A stretch of DNA of 24,455 bases from a virus (Duplodnaviria; Heunggongvirae; Uroviricota; Caudoviricetes), in IMG/VR virus record IMGVR_UViG_2778261278_000008; one strand, 5' to 3'. The notes under the pieces were generated by a model that searched no databases, was not told where the DNA came from, and was given only the letters and a program-made list of their open reading frames with translations. Below, piece after piece: positions 1 through 10,132 of this stretch. Positions within the stretch are counted from its first letter, which is position 1, and each line of letters opens with the position of its first letter. A program made the translations under genes and the position numbers.

Positions 1-1002
1 TTACCCTCTATTATCAAAAGGGTTCAATTCAACAGCAGCCTCTAAATGACCTGGAGCAAAATGCGCATAACGCATAGTCATTTTTATATCGCTATGCCCC
101 AGTATTTTTTGCAACACAAGAATATTTCCGCCCCGCATCATAAAATGACTGGCAAACGTGTGACGTAGCACATGAGTTAATTGCCCATCAGGAAGCTCGA
201 TCTTCGCTCTCTTAATTGCAGCGTCAAAAGCCTCATAACATGGTGAAAATAGCGCTCCTCGTTTTTTAGGAAGCATAGCCTGCAATTGAGGTGAAATAGG
301 TACAGTGCGGTTCTTCTTTCCTTTAGTTTTAACAAATGTGATTCGACCGGGCAGTACTTGAGATTGCTTTAATCCTTCTGCTTCACTCCACCGAGCACCA
401 GTCGCAAGCCCAATACGGACAACAACCCCCAAATCTTTATTCCGTGACTCATCACACGAAATCAGAAGGCGTTCAATCTCATCTACATACAGAAACGCCA
501 GTTCCTTTTCTTCCTCACGAAACTTGCGAATACCAGTCAGAGGGTTTTCACCAGACCACTCCCCAAGGCGCTTCAGTTCGGCAAAAACAGCATGTAGATA
601 TGACTGCTCGCGATTAACGGTTGCTTCACTAAGTTTTTTCTTCCCCTTGGGATTCCATTCTCCTGATAGCCTTCTTTCCCGATAAGTAGCAAACATATTT
701 TTGTCAAACTGAGAAGCAAATGGATCTCCCAGCCTAGAACAAATCGCCTCAAGTTTGACTTTGCGCTCTGCACCAGAGGACAAGGTTTTACCGTACATCT
801 CAAACCAACGAGCAATCAACTCAGAAAGACGAGGACCAGAACCATCTTGAAACTCGTCTCCAACTCTACTATTCATTAAACGGCGCTCATAAGAGAGCGC
901 CTCACTTTTTGTCGCAAACTGTTTACGAATGCGTTTTCCCGATGCCCCGTAGGGATAACATTCGCAAAGCCATTTACCTGATGGAATCTTACGAACCGAC
1001 AT
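1..1002 (-). CDS. int: Tyrosine recombinase, P2-type phage integrase
   Basis: 333-aa ORF. C-terminal catalytic region HVLRHTFASHFMMRGG...LGHSDIKMTMRYAHF is typical of tyrosine recombinases; N-terminal GKRIRKQFATKSEA and the C-terminus resemble P2 Int as recalled. Lies downstream of the repressor on the same strand, as in P2. Confidence 0.92.
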   Translation of the reverse strand: MSVRKIPSGKWLCECYPYGASGKRIRKQFATKSEALSYERRLMNSRVGDEFQDGSGPRLSELIARWFEMYGKTLSSGAERKVKLEAICSRLGDPFASQFDKNMFATYRERRLSGEWNPKGKKKLSEATVNREQSYLHAVFAELKRLGEWSGENPLTGIRKFREEEKELAFLYVDEIERLLISCDESRNKDLGVVVRIGLATGARWSEAEGLKQSQVLPGRITFVKTKGKKNRTVPISPQLQAMLPKKRGALFSPCYEAFDAAIKRAKIELPDGQLTHVLRHTFASHFMMRGGNILVLQKILGHSDIKMTMRYAHFAPGHLEAAVELNPFDNRG

Positions 1003-1007
1003 TTTAG

Positions 1008-1355
1008 TTACTTATCACATAAATCAAATGCAGCCTTAGTGACATCCCCCAGATTCTTTTTTAACCCTGGGGCGGCATCATTATCTAGCCAAAATGGATT
1101 ATTGTTATCTAACGGTAACGCACCAAATGTTTTACCTTTTATTCGAGCCAAACCTGTAAGCGCATATAACTTATTATCATCAAAATTCATCACATAAGGA
1201 TTACCATCAAGACACTGTAATTGAACCTCATCAGTATTAAATGGCCATACCCCATTGAAACTCTCACGTTCAATAGTTTTAAAAGGCATTGCGACGGCAG
1301 AAAAAGAAAACATAAATAAAAAAGTAACTAATAGTTGAATCTTTTTTACTTTCAT
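1008..1355 (-). CDS. Small secreted protein of unknown function (cargo gene between repressor and int)
   Basis: 115-aa ORF with Sec-type signal peptide (MKVKKIQLLVTFLFMFSFSAVA) and two Cys in the mature part. GAGGT RBS about 6 nt upstream. AT-rich coding sequence. Confidence 0.6.
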   Translation of the reverse strand: MKVKKIQLLVTFLFMFSFSAVAMPFKTIERESFNGVWPFNTDEVQLQCLDGNPYVMNFDDNKLYALTGLARIKGKTFGALPLDNNNPFWLDNDAAPGLKKNLGDVTKAAFDLCDK

Positions 1356-1384
1356 ATCATTACCTCAATTTAGCTCAAGTAAGA

Positions 1385-2035
1385 TTACAAATTAAAAAAC
1401 ATCCTAGAAATGGCACCGCCTACCAAAACCCCTACGCAGATAAAGAATATTATTTCTTTTGGATAAAGTCGGATTAATTCTGAAGCACGAAGTCGGACTT
1501 CTGGTAAGGTCGAATTCTCTGTGTTGCTTGATACCGATTGTTGCTCTAACCACGACAATGCAGACTGTAACTGAGAACGAGTAAGATCGTTTAAACGTCC
1601 TGTACCGAAATTGATATGGCAATACCGCAGAAGTTTTTGTCGAAGTCCACAGTCTTCACTGTTACGTAGTAATAAACTTACAAGAGTCTTACAGGCATCA
1701 TGATCTTTACATCGCTCAAGCATTGCATGCAGAAAACTCTCCGCTGTTTTATATTGATTTACTGTCATATCATCAATACCAGCTACACCAATCTCCGCAT
1801 GTACTTTTTGCCAAATAATAAACGCTTCAGTATTGCTAGCTTCTGCAATAGCAGCAACCAAACTATTTAGCTCCTTACGCTGAGCCTTAAGCAAAGGGCG
1901 ATCGTCATCATCATTATTCGAAGGGATTGCGATATTGACGATATGAGAACCATCATATCGATCTATCTGAATATTCTTTTCGTGAAAATCACGCCCAGCA
2001 ACGCGATTGTTTGAACCGTTTGAGTTGACGGCCAT
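1385..2035 (-). CDS. Hypothetical protein with C-terminal transmembrane anchor; N-terminus repeats the repressor C-terminal motif
   Basis: 216-aa ORF with strong RBS GGGAGG before the ATG. C-terminal hydrophobic helix IIFFICVGVLVGGAISRMFF. N-terminal SNGSNNRVAGRDFHE matches the repressor tail SGGNNRIAGRDYNE. Same frame as the repressor, separated by TGA-TAG-TAG. Confidence 0.6.
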   Translation of the reverse strand: MAVNSNGSNNRVAGRDFHEKNIQIDRYDGSHIVNIAIPSNNDDDDRPLLKAQRKELNSLVAAIAEASNTEAFIIWQKVHAEIGVAGIDDMTVNQYKTAESFLHAMLERCKDHDACKTLVSLLLRNSEDCGLRQKLLRYCHINFGTGRLNDLTRSQLQSALSWLEQQSVSSNTENSTLPEVRLRASELIRLYPKEIIFFICVGVLVGGAISRMFFNL

Positions 2036-2050
2036 GTCACCTCCCTACTA

Positions 2051-2455
2051 TCACCTACCCTTAGTTTCGTTATAGTCACGACCAGCGATACGGTTATTAC
2101 CACCAGAAATATTTAACTCACGTCCTGATGGCTGAGTTTCCTTTTCACTGACCGCACCTTTTAAAGCCCCGATCACCGCGTTTTTCACATCTAACGAAGC
2201 TGCTCGAAAGCGAGTAATCAACTCCTGCTCATCATCGTTATAAGTTTCAGGTGAGTGAATTCCCAACACAACATATTGAACATCAAGGCCAAAACGAGAC
2301 AGCGCTGCCAAATACGCAGCATCAGGAAAGCTATCTCCTTTCTCATATCTAAGCTGAGTTAGCTTTTTGACTCCACCAATGTCGCTCATAGCAACTTGAC
2401 TAAGCCCCAATCTTTCCCTTTCCTCACGCAACCGCTGACCAATATCATTTTTCAT
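2051..2455 (-). CDS. XRE-family helix-turn-helix immunity repressor (P2 C-like role)
   Basis: 134-aa ORF with N-terminal HTH (QRLREERERLGLSQVAMSDIGGVKKLTQLRYEKG). Divergent from the early operon, upstream of int on the same strand. Confidence 0.8.
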   Translation of the reverse strand: MKNDIGQRLREERERLGLSQVAMSDIGGVKKLTQLRYEKGDSFPDAAYLAALSRFGLDVQYVVLGIHSPETYNDDEQELITRFRAASLDVKNAVIGALKGAVSEKETQPSGRELNISGGNNRIAGRDYNETKGR

Positions 2456-2464
2456 ACAAAAACC

Positions 2465-2488
2465 TTGACAGGTATCTTTTTTGATACC
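2465..2488. promoter_or_regulatory. Candidate early promoter/operator in the 75-bp switch region: TTGACA followed by palindrome GGTATC-N6-GATACC
   Basis: Perfect -35 hexamer TTGACA at 2465-2470 on the plus strand, immediately followed by an inverted repeat GGTATC(2471-2476)/GATACC(2483-2488). Lies between the divergently oriented repressor and early genes. No convincing -10 found by eye. Confidence 0.4.
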
Positions 2489-2530
2489 AAAATGATTTCA
2501 CGAGCTATTAGATGATCACAATATACCACT

Positions 2531-2737
2531 ATGAAACAAGTTCTTCACGATACCAGATCACGCATTCCGCGTAACACCGCCACAGGTCCAAGACTGGCAC
2601 TTCGGCTGTCCCTCGAGGAGCGAGCCGTCATTGATGAAATGGCAGCTAAAGAGCAACGCTCATCCTCTAACATGGCGCGCATGATCTTCCTTCGCGGCCT
2701 AGAGCTAACCCAGAAAGAACAAAACAAATCTTCCTGA
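2531..2737 (+). CDS. Ribbon-helix-helix (Arc/MetJ/CopG-like) small DNA-binding protein, first gene of the early operon
   Basis: 68-aa ORF; pattern RLALRLSLEERAVIDEMAAKEQRSSSNMARMIFLRGLEL fits beta-strand plus two helices of RHH regulators. Position equivalent to a Cro/Apl-type gene. Confidence 0.55.
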   Translation: MKQVLHDTRSRIPRNTATGPRLALRLSLEERAVIDEMAAKEQRSSSNMARMIFLRGLELTQKEQNKSS

Positions 2738-2753
2738 TCAGGAGGCTAGTGGG

Positions 2754-2957
2754 ATGTCAGGTATAACCATCAATATCAATGTGAATGCCCCCTATGTATC
2801 CCTGCAGAAATATGCAGAGATAACAGGTATCCCTCTTAATACATGCAAAAAGATGTTGGCTGACGGTCGAATTATTATCCGTCCCAAACGCGCCAAAATG
2901 GAAAAGCCTGAAGTTAACCTTGTGGCGATGTTAAAAGACGCTTTGGCTAACAGCTAA
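2754..2957 (+). CDS. cox: Cox-like early regulator/excisionase-type HTH protein
   Basis: 67-aa ORF; APYVSLQKYAEITGIPLNTCKKMLADGRI resembles P2 Cox (IPYQEFAKLIGKSTGAVRRMIDKGKL) as recalled from memory. Confidence 0.55.
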   Translation: MSGITININVNAPYVSLQKYAEITGIPLNTCKKMLADGRIIIRPKRAKMEKPEVNLVAMLKDALANS

Positions 2958-2978
2958 AACAATCAACAGAGCATCATC

Positions 2979-3329
2979 ATGAAAAAAAACGCTAATAATC
3001 CATACTCCAAATTTCGTAATGGCGTAGAACGCCATGTACACCACGTCGCTACCAGTGCATCACGTAGTAACAGCCGCTATAACCTGAACGAGACGCACGC
3101 AACACCAGATGGGCACGCTGTAAAACAAATCGGCGAACACACCTGGCTGATTAAGAAAGCTGGAATCGTGGTTCACAGATGCCCACGCAATCCGTTTACC
3201 GGAAACCGCATTTTTGCATTAAGCAGCGGCGATAATCAGTTCGGGCAGGATTTCACATTGTACGAAGCACTGCGCACAGTCGATCGTCTGCTTCGCGGGC
3301 AAAGTTTTATTAAACAGGCTGATTTATAA
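2979..3329 (+). CDS. Hypothetical early-region protein
   Basis: 116-aa ORF in the early operon, same strand and tight spacing with neighbours. No family recognised. Confidence 0.55.
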   Translation: MKKNANNPYSKFRNGVERHVHHVATSASRSNSRYNLNETHATPDGHAVKQIGEHTWLIKKAGIVVHRCPRNPFTGNRIFALSSGDNQFGQDFTLYEALRTVDRLLRGQSFIKQADL

Positions 3330-3339
3330 CAGGTGCTTT

Positions 3340-3618
3340 ATGACCAAAGACCATGCACAAGGTGTATTTATCCGTTTTATTGATTTTCGCGGTGAACTGT
3401 TATTACGCGCATCGGCTATTGATGGAGTCGTCCCATCAGAAAAAAATGCAGCTACCTACGTTTATCTGAACGGTACGCGCCTGACTGTGGAACTTCCGTA
3501 CCAGACTGTACACGAAATCATTAGCGAAGCTGAAAAGGCACGCCAGGCTAATGGCGATGAACCCTATATCGAAATTATTTGTATGGATTCAGAAGCTGAA
3601 ATCCAGAAAGCAGATTAA
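3340..3618 (+). CDS. Hypothetical early-region protein
   Basis: 92-aa ORF, 10 nt after the previous stop. Confidence 0.55.
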   Translation: MTKDHAQGVFIRFIDFRGELLLRASAIDGVVPSEKNAATYVYLNGTRLTVELPYQTVHEIISEAEKARQANGDEPYIEIICMDSEAEIQKAD

Positions 3619-3629
3619 AGGGCGTTGCG

Positions 3630-3872
3630 ATGGGCAAAGAATATAAAACTCTCATTAACAAAGCACTTGAACGATTTTATTTTCGCTTAAGTGCATCAGG
3701 CGCTCATGCTGAACGTGCAGCCCGTGACTCATTGACCAGGGCAATCCGGAGTTTGTATGACGTTGCTTTTTACGCTGATGATCTGGATGCACTTAACGAA
3801 CTTTCCGAGCTGATCTGTGCCGCAGAATGCGGGGAACACATTGAACCGTATAAGCTGGGGAATATCGCATGA
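3630..3872 (+). CDS. Hypothetical early-region protein
   Basis: 80-aa ORF, 11 nt after the previous stop. Confidence 0.5.
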   Translation: MGKEYKTLINKALERFYFRLSASGAHAERAARDSLTRAIRSLYDVAFYADDLDALNELSELICAAECGEHIEPYKLGNIA

Positions 3873-3934
3873 GTATATTTATCTCATGGCTTGTTCTGAT
3901 TATTTCGGTGGCCTGCGCCATTGGGATTATGTGA
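3869..3934 (+). CDS. Candidate 21-aa hydrophobic micropeptide (MSIFISWLVLIISVACAIGIM)
   Basis: ATG overlaps the stop of the upstream gene (ATGA), suggesting translational coupling. Entirely hydrophobic, single predicted TM helix. Too short for the ORF track. Confidence 0.3.
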   Translation: MSIFISWLVLIISVACAIGIM

Positions 3935-4074
3935 ATTATTCATTCAGTAAAAAAGATTGAACGCTTTTTCACTGACAAATAACAGATTAAACAAAACCCC
4001 AGATTAAACCCGAAAACCTGAAAACTATCCGCATTCGCGGAGGTATTCGCACACGTAAATAACGGAGATATAAA

Positions 4075-9172: not shown

Positions 9173-10132
9173 ATGAAAATTTGTATCGATGACGGCTCCA
9201 CCAACATCAAGCTGGCATGGACTGAGAACGGCGAACGCCGCAACGCCATCAGCCCGAACAGCTTCAAGTCGGAATGGTCTGCGCCGTTCGGTGGCACGCA
9301 GCCCGCGAACTACATGCTTGATGGCGTGCGCTATGGTTTTGATCCGGTCAGTGATCGCTTTGTCCAGACGACCGACACGCAATACCAGTACAGCGATGTG
9401 AATGTCATTGCCATTCATCACGCGCTGGTCAAATCAGGCATCACACCACAGGAAGTGGATGTGGTTGTCACCCTGCCACTGAGCGAATATTTCGACACAA
9501 ACGCACAGCCGGACATGGCCAACATCAACCGCAAAAAAGCAAACGTCATGCGCCCGGTGGCGTGCCAGAACGGAAAAGCATTCACTATCCGTAACGTACG
9601 AGTTATGCCTGAATCCATTCCGGCTGGTTTTAAAGCACTGGCTGACATGAGTCCGTTTGAATCCCTGCTGATTGTGGATTTAGGCGGAACCACGCTGGAT
9701 GTGGCAAAGGTTCAGGGACAACTGGCAGGTATCAGCCAGGTGTTTTGCGATCCACACGTAGGCGTTTCCCTGATGGCCGATGCCGTACTGTCGGTGATGG
9801 CCACTAACGGTATGCGTACCAGTCACCACATCGCCAATACCATTATCGAACATCGCCATGATGAAGCCTGGCTGCGCCAGCACATCCACAATGACGCGCA
9901 TTACGCCAGCCTGATGGCGGTTATTCGTGAAAAGGAAGAAACACTGAAACAACGCGTGATCCGCGCGCTGGCGGTTTTTTCGGGTTACGGGCGGGTGATG
10001 GTTGTCGGTGGCGGGGCGGAGATTGTGGCACCCGCTATCCGCGAAGCCTGCGGAGTTAATGCGACTTTCATCGCGGACGGGGTGCCACAGTTTGCTCTGG
10101 TTAATGGGCTGTACGCAATGGACAAGGAGTAA
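9173..10132 (+). CDS. parM: Actin-like segregation ATPase, ParM/StbA family
   Basis: 319-aa ORF with actin-fold motifs: phosphate-1 ICIDDGSTNIKL, phosphate-2 LIVDLGGTTLD, adenosine VVGGGAEIV. N-terminus closely resembles R1 plasmid ParM as recalled (MLVFIDDGSTNIKLQW...ISPNSFK..EW). RBS AAGGAAAA. Confidence 0.85.
   Translation: MKICIDDGSTNIKLAWTENGERRNAISPNSFKSEWSAPFGGTQPANYMLDGVRYGFDPVSDRFVQTTDTQYQYSDVNVIAIHHALVKSGITPQEVDVVVTLPLSEYFDTNAQPDMANINRKKANVMRPVACQNGKAFTIRNVRVMPESIPAGFKALADMSPFESLLIVDLGGTTLDVAKVQGQLAGISQVFCDPHVGVSLMADAVLSVMATNGMRTSHHIANTIIEHRHDEAWLRQHIHNDAHYASLMAVIREKEETLKQRVIRALAVFSGYGRVMVVGGGAEIVAPAIREACGVNATFIADGVPQFALVNGLYAMDKE

Follow-up and report, generated by a model that had tools for sequence, protein, structure and literature searches.

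The stretch of DNA analysed here, 24,455 nucleotides (nt) long and called the window throughout, is a caudoviral record (IMGVR_UViG_2778261278_000008), and our subject is the interval in it that separates an immunity repressor gene from an integrase gene. The window is an Escherichia coli P2-like prophage of the P88/Sp13 type (genus Xuanwuvirus), integrated beside yecA. It shares 97% identity with Escherichia phage 520873 over positions 1-3400 and 99.95% identity with E. coli strain EC21Z-048 over positions 1-4000. Four genes follow one another on the minus strand in the order Xre-type helix-turn-helix (HTH) repressor, orf216, orf115 and tyrosine integrase (int), separated by gaps of 15, 29 and 5 nt. 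The repressor (134 amino acids (aa), 2051-2455) heads this leftward operon, matches Pfam HTH_31/HTH_3 and PHROG transcriptional repressor families, and is divergent from Arc-like and Cox-like early genes. The second gene, orf216 (216 aa, 1385-2035; phrog_5825, 7e-102), encodes a Flk_N-domain protein that is predicted to be tail-anchored in the inner membrane and that we propose to be a partner of the repressor. The third, orf115 (115 aa, 1008-1355; phrog_2950, 8e-39), encodes a predicted exported protein of the YebY/DUF2511 fold and occupies a variable cargo slot before int (1-1002; Pfam Int_N 5e-32, Phage_integrase 1e-21), the last gene of the operon. Counterparts in prophage Sp13 of E. coli O157:H7 Sakai are ECs_2620 (annotated as phage repressor), ECs_2619 (orf216), ECs_2618 (orf115) and ECs_2617 (int).

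A preliminary description of the window had recognised two minus-strand open reading frames (ORFs) between repressor and integrase, each with its own ribosome-binding site and both inside a single repressor-to-int transcription unit, and this gene layout held on analysis. Shine-Dalgarno sequences were read at 2045-2040 (GGGAGG, minus strand), ahead of the orf216 ATG at 2035, and at 1366-1363 (GAGG), ahead of the orf115 ATG at 1355; int starts 5 nt past the orf115 stop codon with no clear ribosome-binding site. A scan of the operon found no minus-strand terminator-like site, and the same kind of scan for internal promoters and terminators gave fewer sites than shuffled sequence. An Rfam search of 1-3400 returned no credible RNA element. 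In related prophages the gene in the slot abuts or overlaps int, which suggests that slot gene and int are translationally coupled. Both orf216 and orf115 are probably expressed in the lysogen.

The two genes had also been described as AT-rich. That is accurate for orf115, a clear outlier with 34.2% guanine plus cytosine (GC) and 26% GC at third codon positions (GC3), but orf216 (40.1%; GC3 32%) lies merely slightly under its neighbours, the repressor (44.2%) and int (44.4%). The whole window has 52.7% GC and its structural genes 54-58%. Because both genes have PHROG matches, show ratios of nonsynonymous to synonymous substitution (dN/dS) of 0.06-0.31 wherever dS is unsaturated, and are present in 507-525 of 5426 complete E. 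coli genomes, we conclude that they are real genes under constraint. Within the phage isolate collection the two are carried only by Escherichia phage 520873. In one E. coli genome (NZ_AP042519.1) the orf216-orf115 region is interrupted by an IS1A element and lies in two pieces.

The end of the repressor and the beginning of orf216 carry copies of one Gly/Asn-rich motif of 17-28 residues. The repressor tail reads LNISGGNNRIAGRDYNE (residues 114-130; 2066-2116, minus strand), a motif kept at the C-terminal end of repressors upstream of Flk_N genes, and the orf216 copy reads VNSNGSNNRVAGRDFHE (residues 3-19; 1979-2029, minus strand). Aligned locally, the tail and the orf216 N-terminus score 62 (null 20.7 +/- 4.4). 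Residues G7, N10, R11, G14, R15, D16 and E19 of orf216 are invariant across 15 homologs, and the tail motif is constant although the repressors upstream of Flk_N genes have at least three different HTH domains. In the window, six of the ten residues that are identical between the copies are encoded by different codons. The same was found more widely: at least half of the identical motif residues have different codons in seven of nine lineages. Because DNA identity between the copies is 48-67% (nine lineages tested) and codon use differs, the likeness appears to be maintained at the protein level.

Two simpler origins were considered and rejected. Recent gene conversion or duplication as the source of the motif is ruled out by the DNA identities and codon differences given above. 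A readthrough or frameshift fusion of repressor and orf216 is ruled out by the three stops (TGA TAG TAG) that end the repressor frame upstream of the orf216 Shine-Dalgarno sequence, despite the frame that the two genes share in the window. Elsewhere both the spacing and the frame between repressor and partner vary, with out-of-frame gaps of 8, 11, 22 and 25 nt.

Four classes of motif were recognised (NR[VI]AGRD[YF], FHGxVGQxAxGD, QQFNGxVxxVxxGD and FNGxxxGQF..IIN), each common to the repressor tail and the partner N-terminus within its own lineage. Tails and N-termini of one class score 47-54 on average, compared with 16-22 when class 1 is set against other classes, and for 13 of 16 tails the best-scoring N-terminus is one of the same class. 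Pseudomonas prophages pair the repressor tail QTFHGSVGQSVAGNVTNKSGVTFNV with the partner N-terminus QDFHGDVGQAAAGDINNYGVSISL, and, in a second variant, QQFNGPVGSVTSGDVVN with QQFNGSVEQVAAGDIKN. The corresponding sequences are QIFNGDISGQFAGNQIIN and QEFNGTAQGQFSSRDIIN in a lineage of 47% GC, and MVASGSGITQVGSRVRI and MSASGFGIIQVAGDLSI in Burkholderia phage KS10, a fifth matching variant.

The linkage of repressor and partner was examined from two sides. Among 70 loci with a Flk_N gene, 67 have a same-strand ORF that ends no more than 120 nt upstream, and the tail of this ORF matches the partner N-terminus at a score of at least 35 (shuffled expectation 19 +/- 4) in all of these but one (66/67). 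The upstream ORFs that were inspected are Xre-type HTH repressors. These loci span at least 12 enterobacterial genera, Pseudomonas and the 47% GC lineage, and in every intact enterobacterial locus examined a repressor of about 127-137 aa immediately precedes the Flk_N gene. The second census searched viral contigs from the motif rather than from Flk_N and yielded 80 readable loci, with a copy counted as C-terminal if a stop codon followed within 8 residues. A C-terminal and an N-terminal copy lie 73-211 nt apart in 78 of them; of the exceptions, one is at a contig edge and the other was left unresolved. In an Arsenophonus locus (L027:2569-3466) the tailed repressor is present twice in tandem ahead of the Flk_N gene, the cargo slot is empty and int is degraded.

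The joints of this mosaic were located by comparing the window with an E. coli relative that shares its attachment site. The int genes are homologous (90% identity) despite a different cargo gene in the relative. Also homologous is 1533-2092, a stretch made up of the Flk_N core and the N-terminus preceding it, together with the final 42 nt of the repressor gene. The HTH domain (2093-2480) is non-homologous, as are orf115 and the linker and transmembrane part of orf216 (1007-1532), with breakpoints at 1006/1007 and near 1533. Since the flanking HTH domain on one side, and the cargo, linker and transmembrane segment on the other, are replaced in this relative, the conserved unit appears to be the repressor tail together with the Flk_N gene.

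The predicted architecture of orf216 is that of a cytoplasmic domain held at the membrane. The AlphaFold2 (AF2) monomer model has a mean predicted local distance difference test (pLDDT) score of 84. Residues 1-45, which include the motif, fall below 50 and are predicted to be disordered. The Flk_N helical core (residues 46-173; 1517-1900, minus strand) consists of two internally duplicated three-helix repeats and is modelled with very high confidence. The C-terminal membrane anchor that the preliminary description had reported is borne out: a helix is modelled at residues 192-215 (1391-1462, minus strand), and the single hydrophobic segment of the 216-residue protein lies at 195-213, where the Kyte-Doolittle maximum is 2.24. 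Thus modelled, orf216 would be almost wholly cytoplasmic, with about three residues past the membrane helix. The three-helix unit of the core is similar to small C-terminal domains with which Sak, NinB and Red-beta bind proteins, and a search of orf216 for enzyme-like features found none.

The name of the domain raises the question of flagella. Flk (Fluke, RflH) of Salmonella and E. coli is a cytoplasmic protein that a C-terminal anchor fixes to the membrane (PMC13344023), and orf216 is like it in having the Flk_N helical domain and the tail anchor. The NCBIfam Flk model (NF007987) matches orf216 residues 38-169 at 5.5e-16, and orf216 homologs at 60-97% identity carry Pfam PF27202 Flk_N. These common features would fit a phage copy of Flk that targets the switch in flagellar type III export and changes the motility of the lysogen, but we consider such a role very improbable. 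The match scores 58.8 bits against a full-length equivalog cut-off of 353, the 216 aa of orf216 compare with 333 aa in Flk, and the C-terminal half of Flk is absent. The orf216 N-terminal motif is in turn missing from the one Flk-type relative (343 aa) examined. Klebsiella is usually non-flagellate, yet the orf216 family is common in its prophages. A Flk-like function, for which a gene in a prophage immunity operon offers no evident link to the export switch, would explain neither the repressor linkage nor the motif.

The Flk_N superfamily is small, with 134 cluster representatives among 1.84 billion proteins. One Flk_N repeat (orf216 residues 50-107) also occurs at the C-terminus of Rha/Ant-like antirepressors (phrog_245, 'anti-repressor Ant'); one such protein, P0248, has a Rha/Ant-like N-domain and no transmembrane segment. 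A 1175-aa protein labelled Toxocara canis (P0226) matches the Flk_N repeat segment 13 times and may be contamination or an unrelated repeat protein.

The motif is not restricted to Flk_N proteins. At several loci of the motif-first census the tailed repressor is followed by a membrane protein of another type, and non-Flk_N motif proteins are always found downstream of an Xre repressor. One type (117-143 aa) combines the motif with a CxxC...CxxC zinc ribbon and one or two transmembrane helices, and another (187-195 aa) has two transmembrane helices. Pseudomonas loci encode one or two additional two-helix membrane proteins (130-144 aa) that also begin with the motif, so that one repressor may have several motif-bearing membrane partners. 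Loci L031, L034 and L039 hold such extra proteins (e.g., L034:4303-4695). Apart from zinc ribbons, the non-Flk_N partners have no Pfam matches, and none has an annotated function. Partners outside the window are nearly all membrane proteins.

Pairs of this kind are also present in named transposable phages. They correspond to ORF18/ORF20 in Pseudomonas phage B3, to gp17/gp18 in BcepMu and to gp13/gp12 in KS10, where gp12 is Flk_N-like. In the KS10 paper gp13 is named as the lysogenic repressor, and gp12 is reported to be without a match. BcepMu gp18 (L183:2363-3145) is composed of the motif, one Flk_N-like repeat, a transmembrane helix and a periplasmic domain. Together with P0264 it represents a bitopic variant of the partner, with a Cys-containing periplasmic domain (..Y.VGSIIDN..APD.ECV..) that could be a sensor.

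Based on these observations, we assign a probability of roughly 0.6 to the reading that two unrelated elements share the interval and are transcribed along with the repressor and int, namely a partner that belongs to the immunity cassette and pairs with the repressor through the motif, and a cargo gene. In this reading orf216 would be a fixed component of the repressor's immunity cassette, a cytoplasm-facing adaptor held in the inner membrane by its C-terminal tail anchor. The repressor tail and the orf216 N-terminal motif would bind each other, through beta-strand or homotypic association, and the partner would tether the repressor at the membrane or titrate it there, as a co-transcribed membrane anti-sigma factor does with its sigma factor. 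A signal sensed by the Flk_N core or in the membrane would in this way govern repression or its release. Alternatively, the partner may stabilise the repressor, sequester it or be activated by it. What carries this reading is the obligate adjacency of the two genes, the terminal motif that co-varies between them and is conserved at the protein level, the predicted cytoplasmic position of the motif on partners that are nearly always membrane proteins, and the modular exchange of HTH domains and cargo around the pair. Taken together, these make functional coupling of repressor and partner through the motif probable. We found no paper in literature searches that links these partners, Flk-like proteins or amyloid-signalling motifs to prophage repressors. 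The pair of orf216 and the repressor tail would be the E. coli member of a widespread repressor-partner module that is as yet undescribed in the literature searched.

Several known systems provide a frame for such coupling. Extracytoplasmic function (ECF) sigma factors are co-transcribed with a membrane anti-sigma factor that bears a cytoplasmic N-terminal binding region. The likeness to the loci described here is that a DNA-directed regulator is followed by a membrane protein in one operon, that some partners have a zinc ribbon, and that the periplasmic C-terminal domain of BcepMu gp18 could likewise sense a signal. There is no relationship of sequence or fold, and here a short motif is duplicated in both proteins and the regulated protein is a repressor. 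Antirepressors of P2-family phages, namely Tum of phage 186 and epsilon of P4, bind repressors that have no autocleavage domain and thereby control induction. So does RstC from the RS1 satellite of Vibrio, which works by aggregating RstR. These are soluble proteins with separately controlled promoters and no motif in common with the repressor, whereas orf216 is predicted to be membrane-bound and is co-transcribed with its repressor.

Prophage Sp13 has been reported to be mitomycin C-inducible and packaged, despite having no head genes and no peptidase-type repressor (PMC2669165). Because mitomycin C induces Sp13 though its repressor is without a peptidase motif, we infer that a non-canonical route of inactivation exists for this repressor.

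A number of points weigh against direct pairing of repressor and partner, for which the evidence throughout consists of sequence comparison and structural models. Upstream proteins in two Pseudomonas loci (L057 and L058) are without the motif, and the motif sub-classes 2a, 2b and 3 are distinguished just partly. Because the genes are adjacent, part of the motif correlation is co-inheritance, and the apparent co-variation is inflated to that extent. Old or episodic gene conversion may also lie behind the likeness of the copies. Membrane anchoring is not universal, as KS10 gp12 is without a transmembrane segment. A titrator that is co-expressed with the repressor requires a further regulatory step. 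The epsilon-like and antirepressor genes of Sp13 could themselves be the cause of its induction by mitomycin C.

Both copies of the motif might instead be recognised by a common third partner, such as a host or phage protease, chaperone or adaptor, with co-regulation of the two proteins (for example, joint degradation) as the result. The location of the motif at exposed, disordered chain ends and the conservation of both copies at the protein level would fit such a factor, as would the induction of Sp13 despite a repressor without a peptidase domain (PMC2669165). A fixed factor, however, predicts a single motif, and the variants instead change in step from Burkholderia to E. coli. Moreover, the motif resembles no degron class known to us, and we regard recognition by a third partner as rather unlikely.

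In a further reading, the motif would template assembly as in HET-s/NWD2 and the pairs of bacterial amyloid signalling sequences (BASS). In P2-like phages, B3, BcepMu and KS10, a self-complementary amyloid-like motif would join the repressor to membrane proteins, and templated assembly would transmit a decision on lysis, lysogeny or abortive infection. The repressor would be the nucleating sensor and the membrane proteins the effectors, whose clustering or activation would lead to membrane damage or set the timing of lysis or abortive infection. In Bab/Agp (BASS11), HET-s/NWD2 and BASS1-10 the products of adjacent genes have in common a motif of some 20 residues, C-terminal in one and N-terminal in the other, and the gene-pair logic here is like that of Bab/Agp, which is located in E. 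coli prophage hotspots. The Gly/Asn/Ser/Gln fraction of the motif is 0.36-0.41, it is predicted to be disordered in the monomer, and it is portable between domain contexts and among partners at the membrane, as in the amyloid pairs. Here the same motif is found on tail-anchored Flk_N proteins, zinc-ribbon proteins with two transmembrane helices, the 187-195 aa proteins and 130-aa proteins with two transmembrane helices, partners that are unrelated to one another and nearly always membrane-embedded. Some Pseudomonas loci have two or three membrane proteins with an N-terminal motif behind one repressor.

Other features fit amyloid signalling poorly, and we consider it doubtful. Charged residues (R, D and E) are present at the centre of the motif. 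The sensor would be a small HTH protein (Xre, 127-215 aa) rather than a protein of the STAND/NLR (nucleotide-binding leucine-rich repeat) or tetratricopeptide repeat (TPR) type. The Flk_N and zinc-ribbon transmembrane partners are unrelated to Bell/HeLo, with no such domain in orf216, and KS10 gp12 is soluble. Constitutive co-expression of a sensor and a killer in every lysogen would also demand tight control. The comparison with the amyloid pairs covered gene-pair layout and the portability, composition and predicted disorder of the motif.

The product of orf115 is of a different kind from that of orf216. Its Sec signal peptide, claimed in the preliminary description, is predicted here as well (residues 1-22; 1290-1355, minus strand), with a Lys-rich n-region (MKVKK), a hydrophobic core at residues 6-24 and AVA before M23. 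This segment is the only hydrophobic window of the protein. The feature is kept in the orf115 subfamily, where A22, P24 and F25 are invariant in the alignment. Pfam DUF2511 (PF10709) matches at 25.9 bits (gathering cut-off 21), covering profile positions 2-87 of 87. Residues C48 and C113 are invariant in 12 sequences and align with both cysteines of the YebY structure 7n0j, and a putative Cys48-Cys113 disulfide bond would stabilise the protein. The AF2 model is of moderate quality (pLDDT 74). Its top Foldseek matches are 7n0j (YebY) and 6qfp/2mvo (MlbQ), all with probability 1.0, at a target-normalised template-modelling score of about 0.64 (0.38 for 2mvo). The predicted protein is like YebY in DUF2511, signal peptide and cysteines 48/113, and its modelled fold is like those of YebY and the lantibiotic self-resistance lipoprotein MlbQ (PMC8689200). 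It differs from YebY in being about 30% identical to it in the Foldseek structural alignment, in belonging to a distinct subfamily of 17 protein clusters, and in being encoded outside the yobA-yebZ-yebY copper operon context, in a prophage between a Flk_N gene and int; further contexts are on record for the family. We consider it most likely that orf115, in the periplasm of the lysogen, binds some envelope-acting molecule.

All 17 clusters of orf115 relatives are from this small prophage subfamily, and those read in context (Klebsiella, Citrobacter, Serratia and Rosenbergiella prophages) are all flanked by a Flk_N gene upstream and, at a distance of 4-5 nt, by int downstream. Among related prophages with matching flanks the slot has at least six states. 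In place of orf115 are found a DUF8087-like protein (85-102 aa), a BRCT protein (288-292 aa; BRCT match 5e-5), a 291-aa protein resembling the PADLOC candidate PDC-S48 (1.4e-8), a 242-aa membrane protein, or nothing. Also present are a Salmonella protein of 234 aa that has a zinc ribbon and transmembrane segments (L060:4188-4892) and, in Enterobacter soli, two small genes that encode a 123-aa CxxC protein and then a 74-aa tail-anchored protein (L063:4124-4772). Because the content of the slot changes between identical flanks, orf115 appears to be exchangeable cargo, an ordinary moron in a hotspot slot. The alternative cargoes give only hints of anti-phage defence, namely the PDC-S48-like protein, the BRCT protein and a TIR_2 domain in one Pseudomonas locus. 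The TIR_2-domain protein (L065:4490-5362) is encoded two genes downstream of the pair, just before holin and transglycosylase genes, and its N-terminus is without the motif.

The preliminary description had seen orf216 and orf115 as a single insertion, a membrane-anchored protein with a secreted partner that would serve lysogenic conversion, exclusion or toxin/immunity at the envelope. The two genes are indeed adjacent and co-oriented in the lysogenic operon, orf115 has a low GC content, and its relatives are confined to this prophage subfamily, directly after the Flk_N gene wherever context was read. Nevertheless, orf216 accompanies this repressor type whatever follows, and its homologs have at least five other downstream genes or none. 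Most lineages have no orf115. Recombination breakpoints part orf115 from the Flk_N core, orf216 faces the cytoplasm in the predicted topology with about three residues outside, and PADLOC gave no match for either protein. We therefore regard an envelope-acting pair inserted as a unit as a remote prospect. The comparison of the repressor-to-int interval across related prophages, which had been proposed as a check, revealed a variable slot at orf115, while orf216 stays with the repressor tail; the expectation of variable cargo at this position thus stands for the orf115 slot and fails for orf216. Repeats around orf216 and orf115 are of 12-16 nt only, which is at chance level, and provide no insertion scar.

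The operon can be set beside that of P2, where the repressor gene C and int form a leftward operon. Direct succession of C and int, which the preliminary description gave for P2, is seen in P88, a phage of the same genus as the window. The window is like P2 in its leftward repressor-int operon (as in the P88 layout) and in the fixed position of accessory genes; the repressor is C in P2 and an Xre-type protein with a tail here. In a 2026 survey of P2-like hotspots, 8% of P2 defence systems lie between int and primase (PMC13586616). The principal hotspot published so far is the one that separates gpA from gpQ. By comparison, the slot described here is behind a conserved partner gene, within the operon, and tightly coupled to int. 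Genes homologous to yebY had earlier been noted in Enterobacteriaceae with a recombinase gene on one side and a CI-like HTH gene on the other (PMC8689200).

Beyond the repressor, a 68-aa plus-strand ORF (2531-2737) has a full-length match to the PHROG 'Arc-like repressor' (1e-28). At this site RefSeq instead annotates a hypothetical gene of 45 aa on the other strand (2545-2682, minus strand); the plus-strand reading looks better supported. In both Sp13 (L076:23039-44158) and the window (9173-10132), a stbA/ParM-like partition gene follows the replication gene.

If repressor and partner do pair, many textbook-type phage switches would have an unrecognised third component, including those of P2-like prophages of E. 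coli O157, Klebsiella and Salmonella and of the transposable phages B3, BcepMu and KS10. Pairing would also provide a testable control route for repressors without an autocleavage domain, as in the unexplained mitomycin C induction of Sp13 (PMC2669165), and would extend the paired terminal motif of immune amyloid signalling to the control of transcription. Were the motif to act in an amyloid-like manner, orf216/ECs_2619 would be an E. coli example of signalling between a repressor and the membrane. The motif is a simple marker for such cassettes, and the slot behind them is a place to seek genes for lysogenic conversion and defence.

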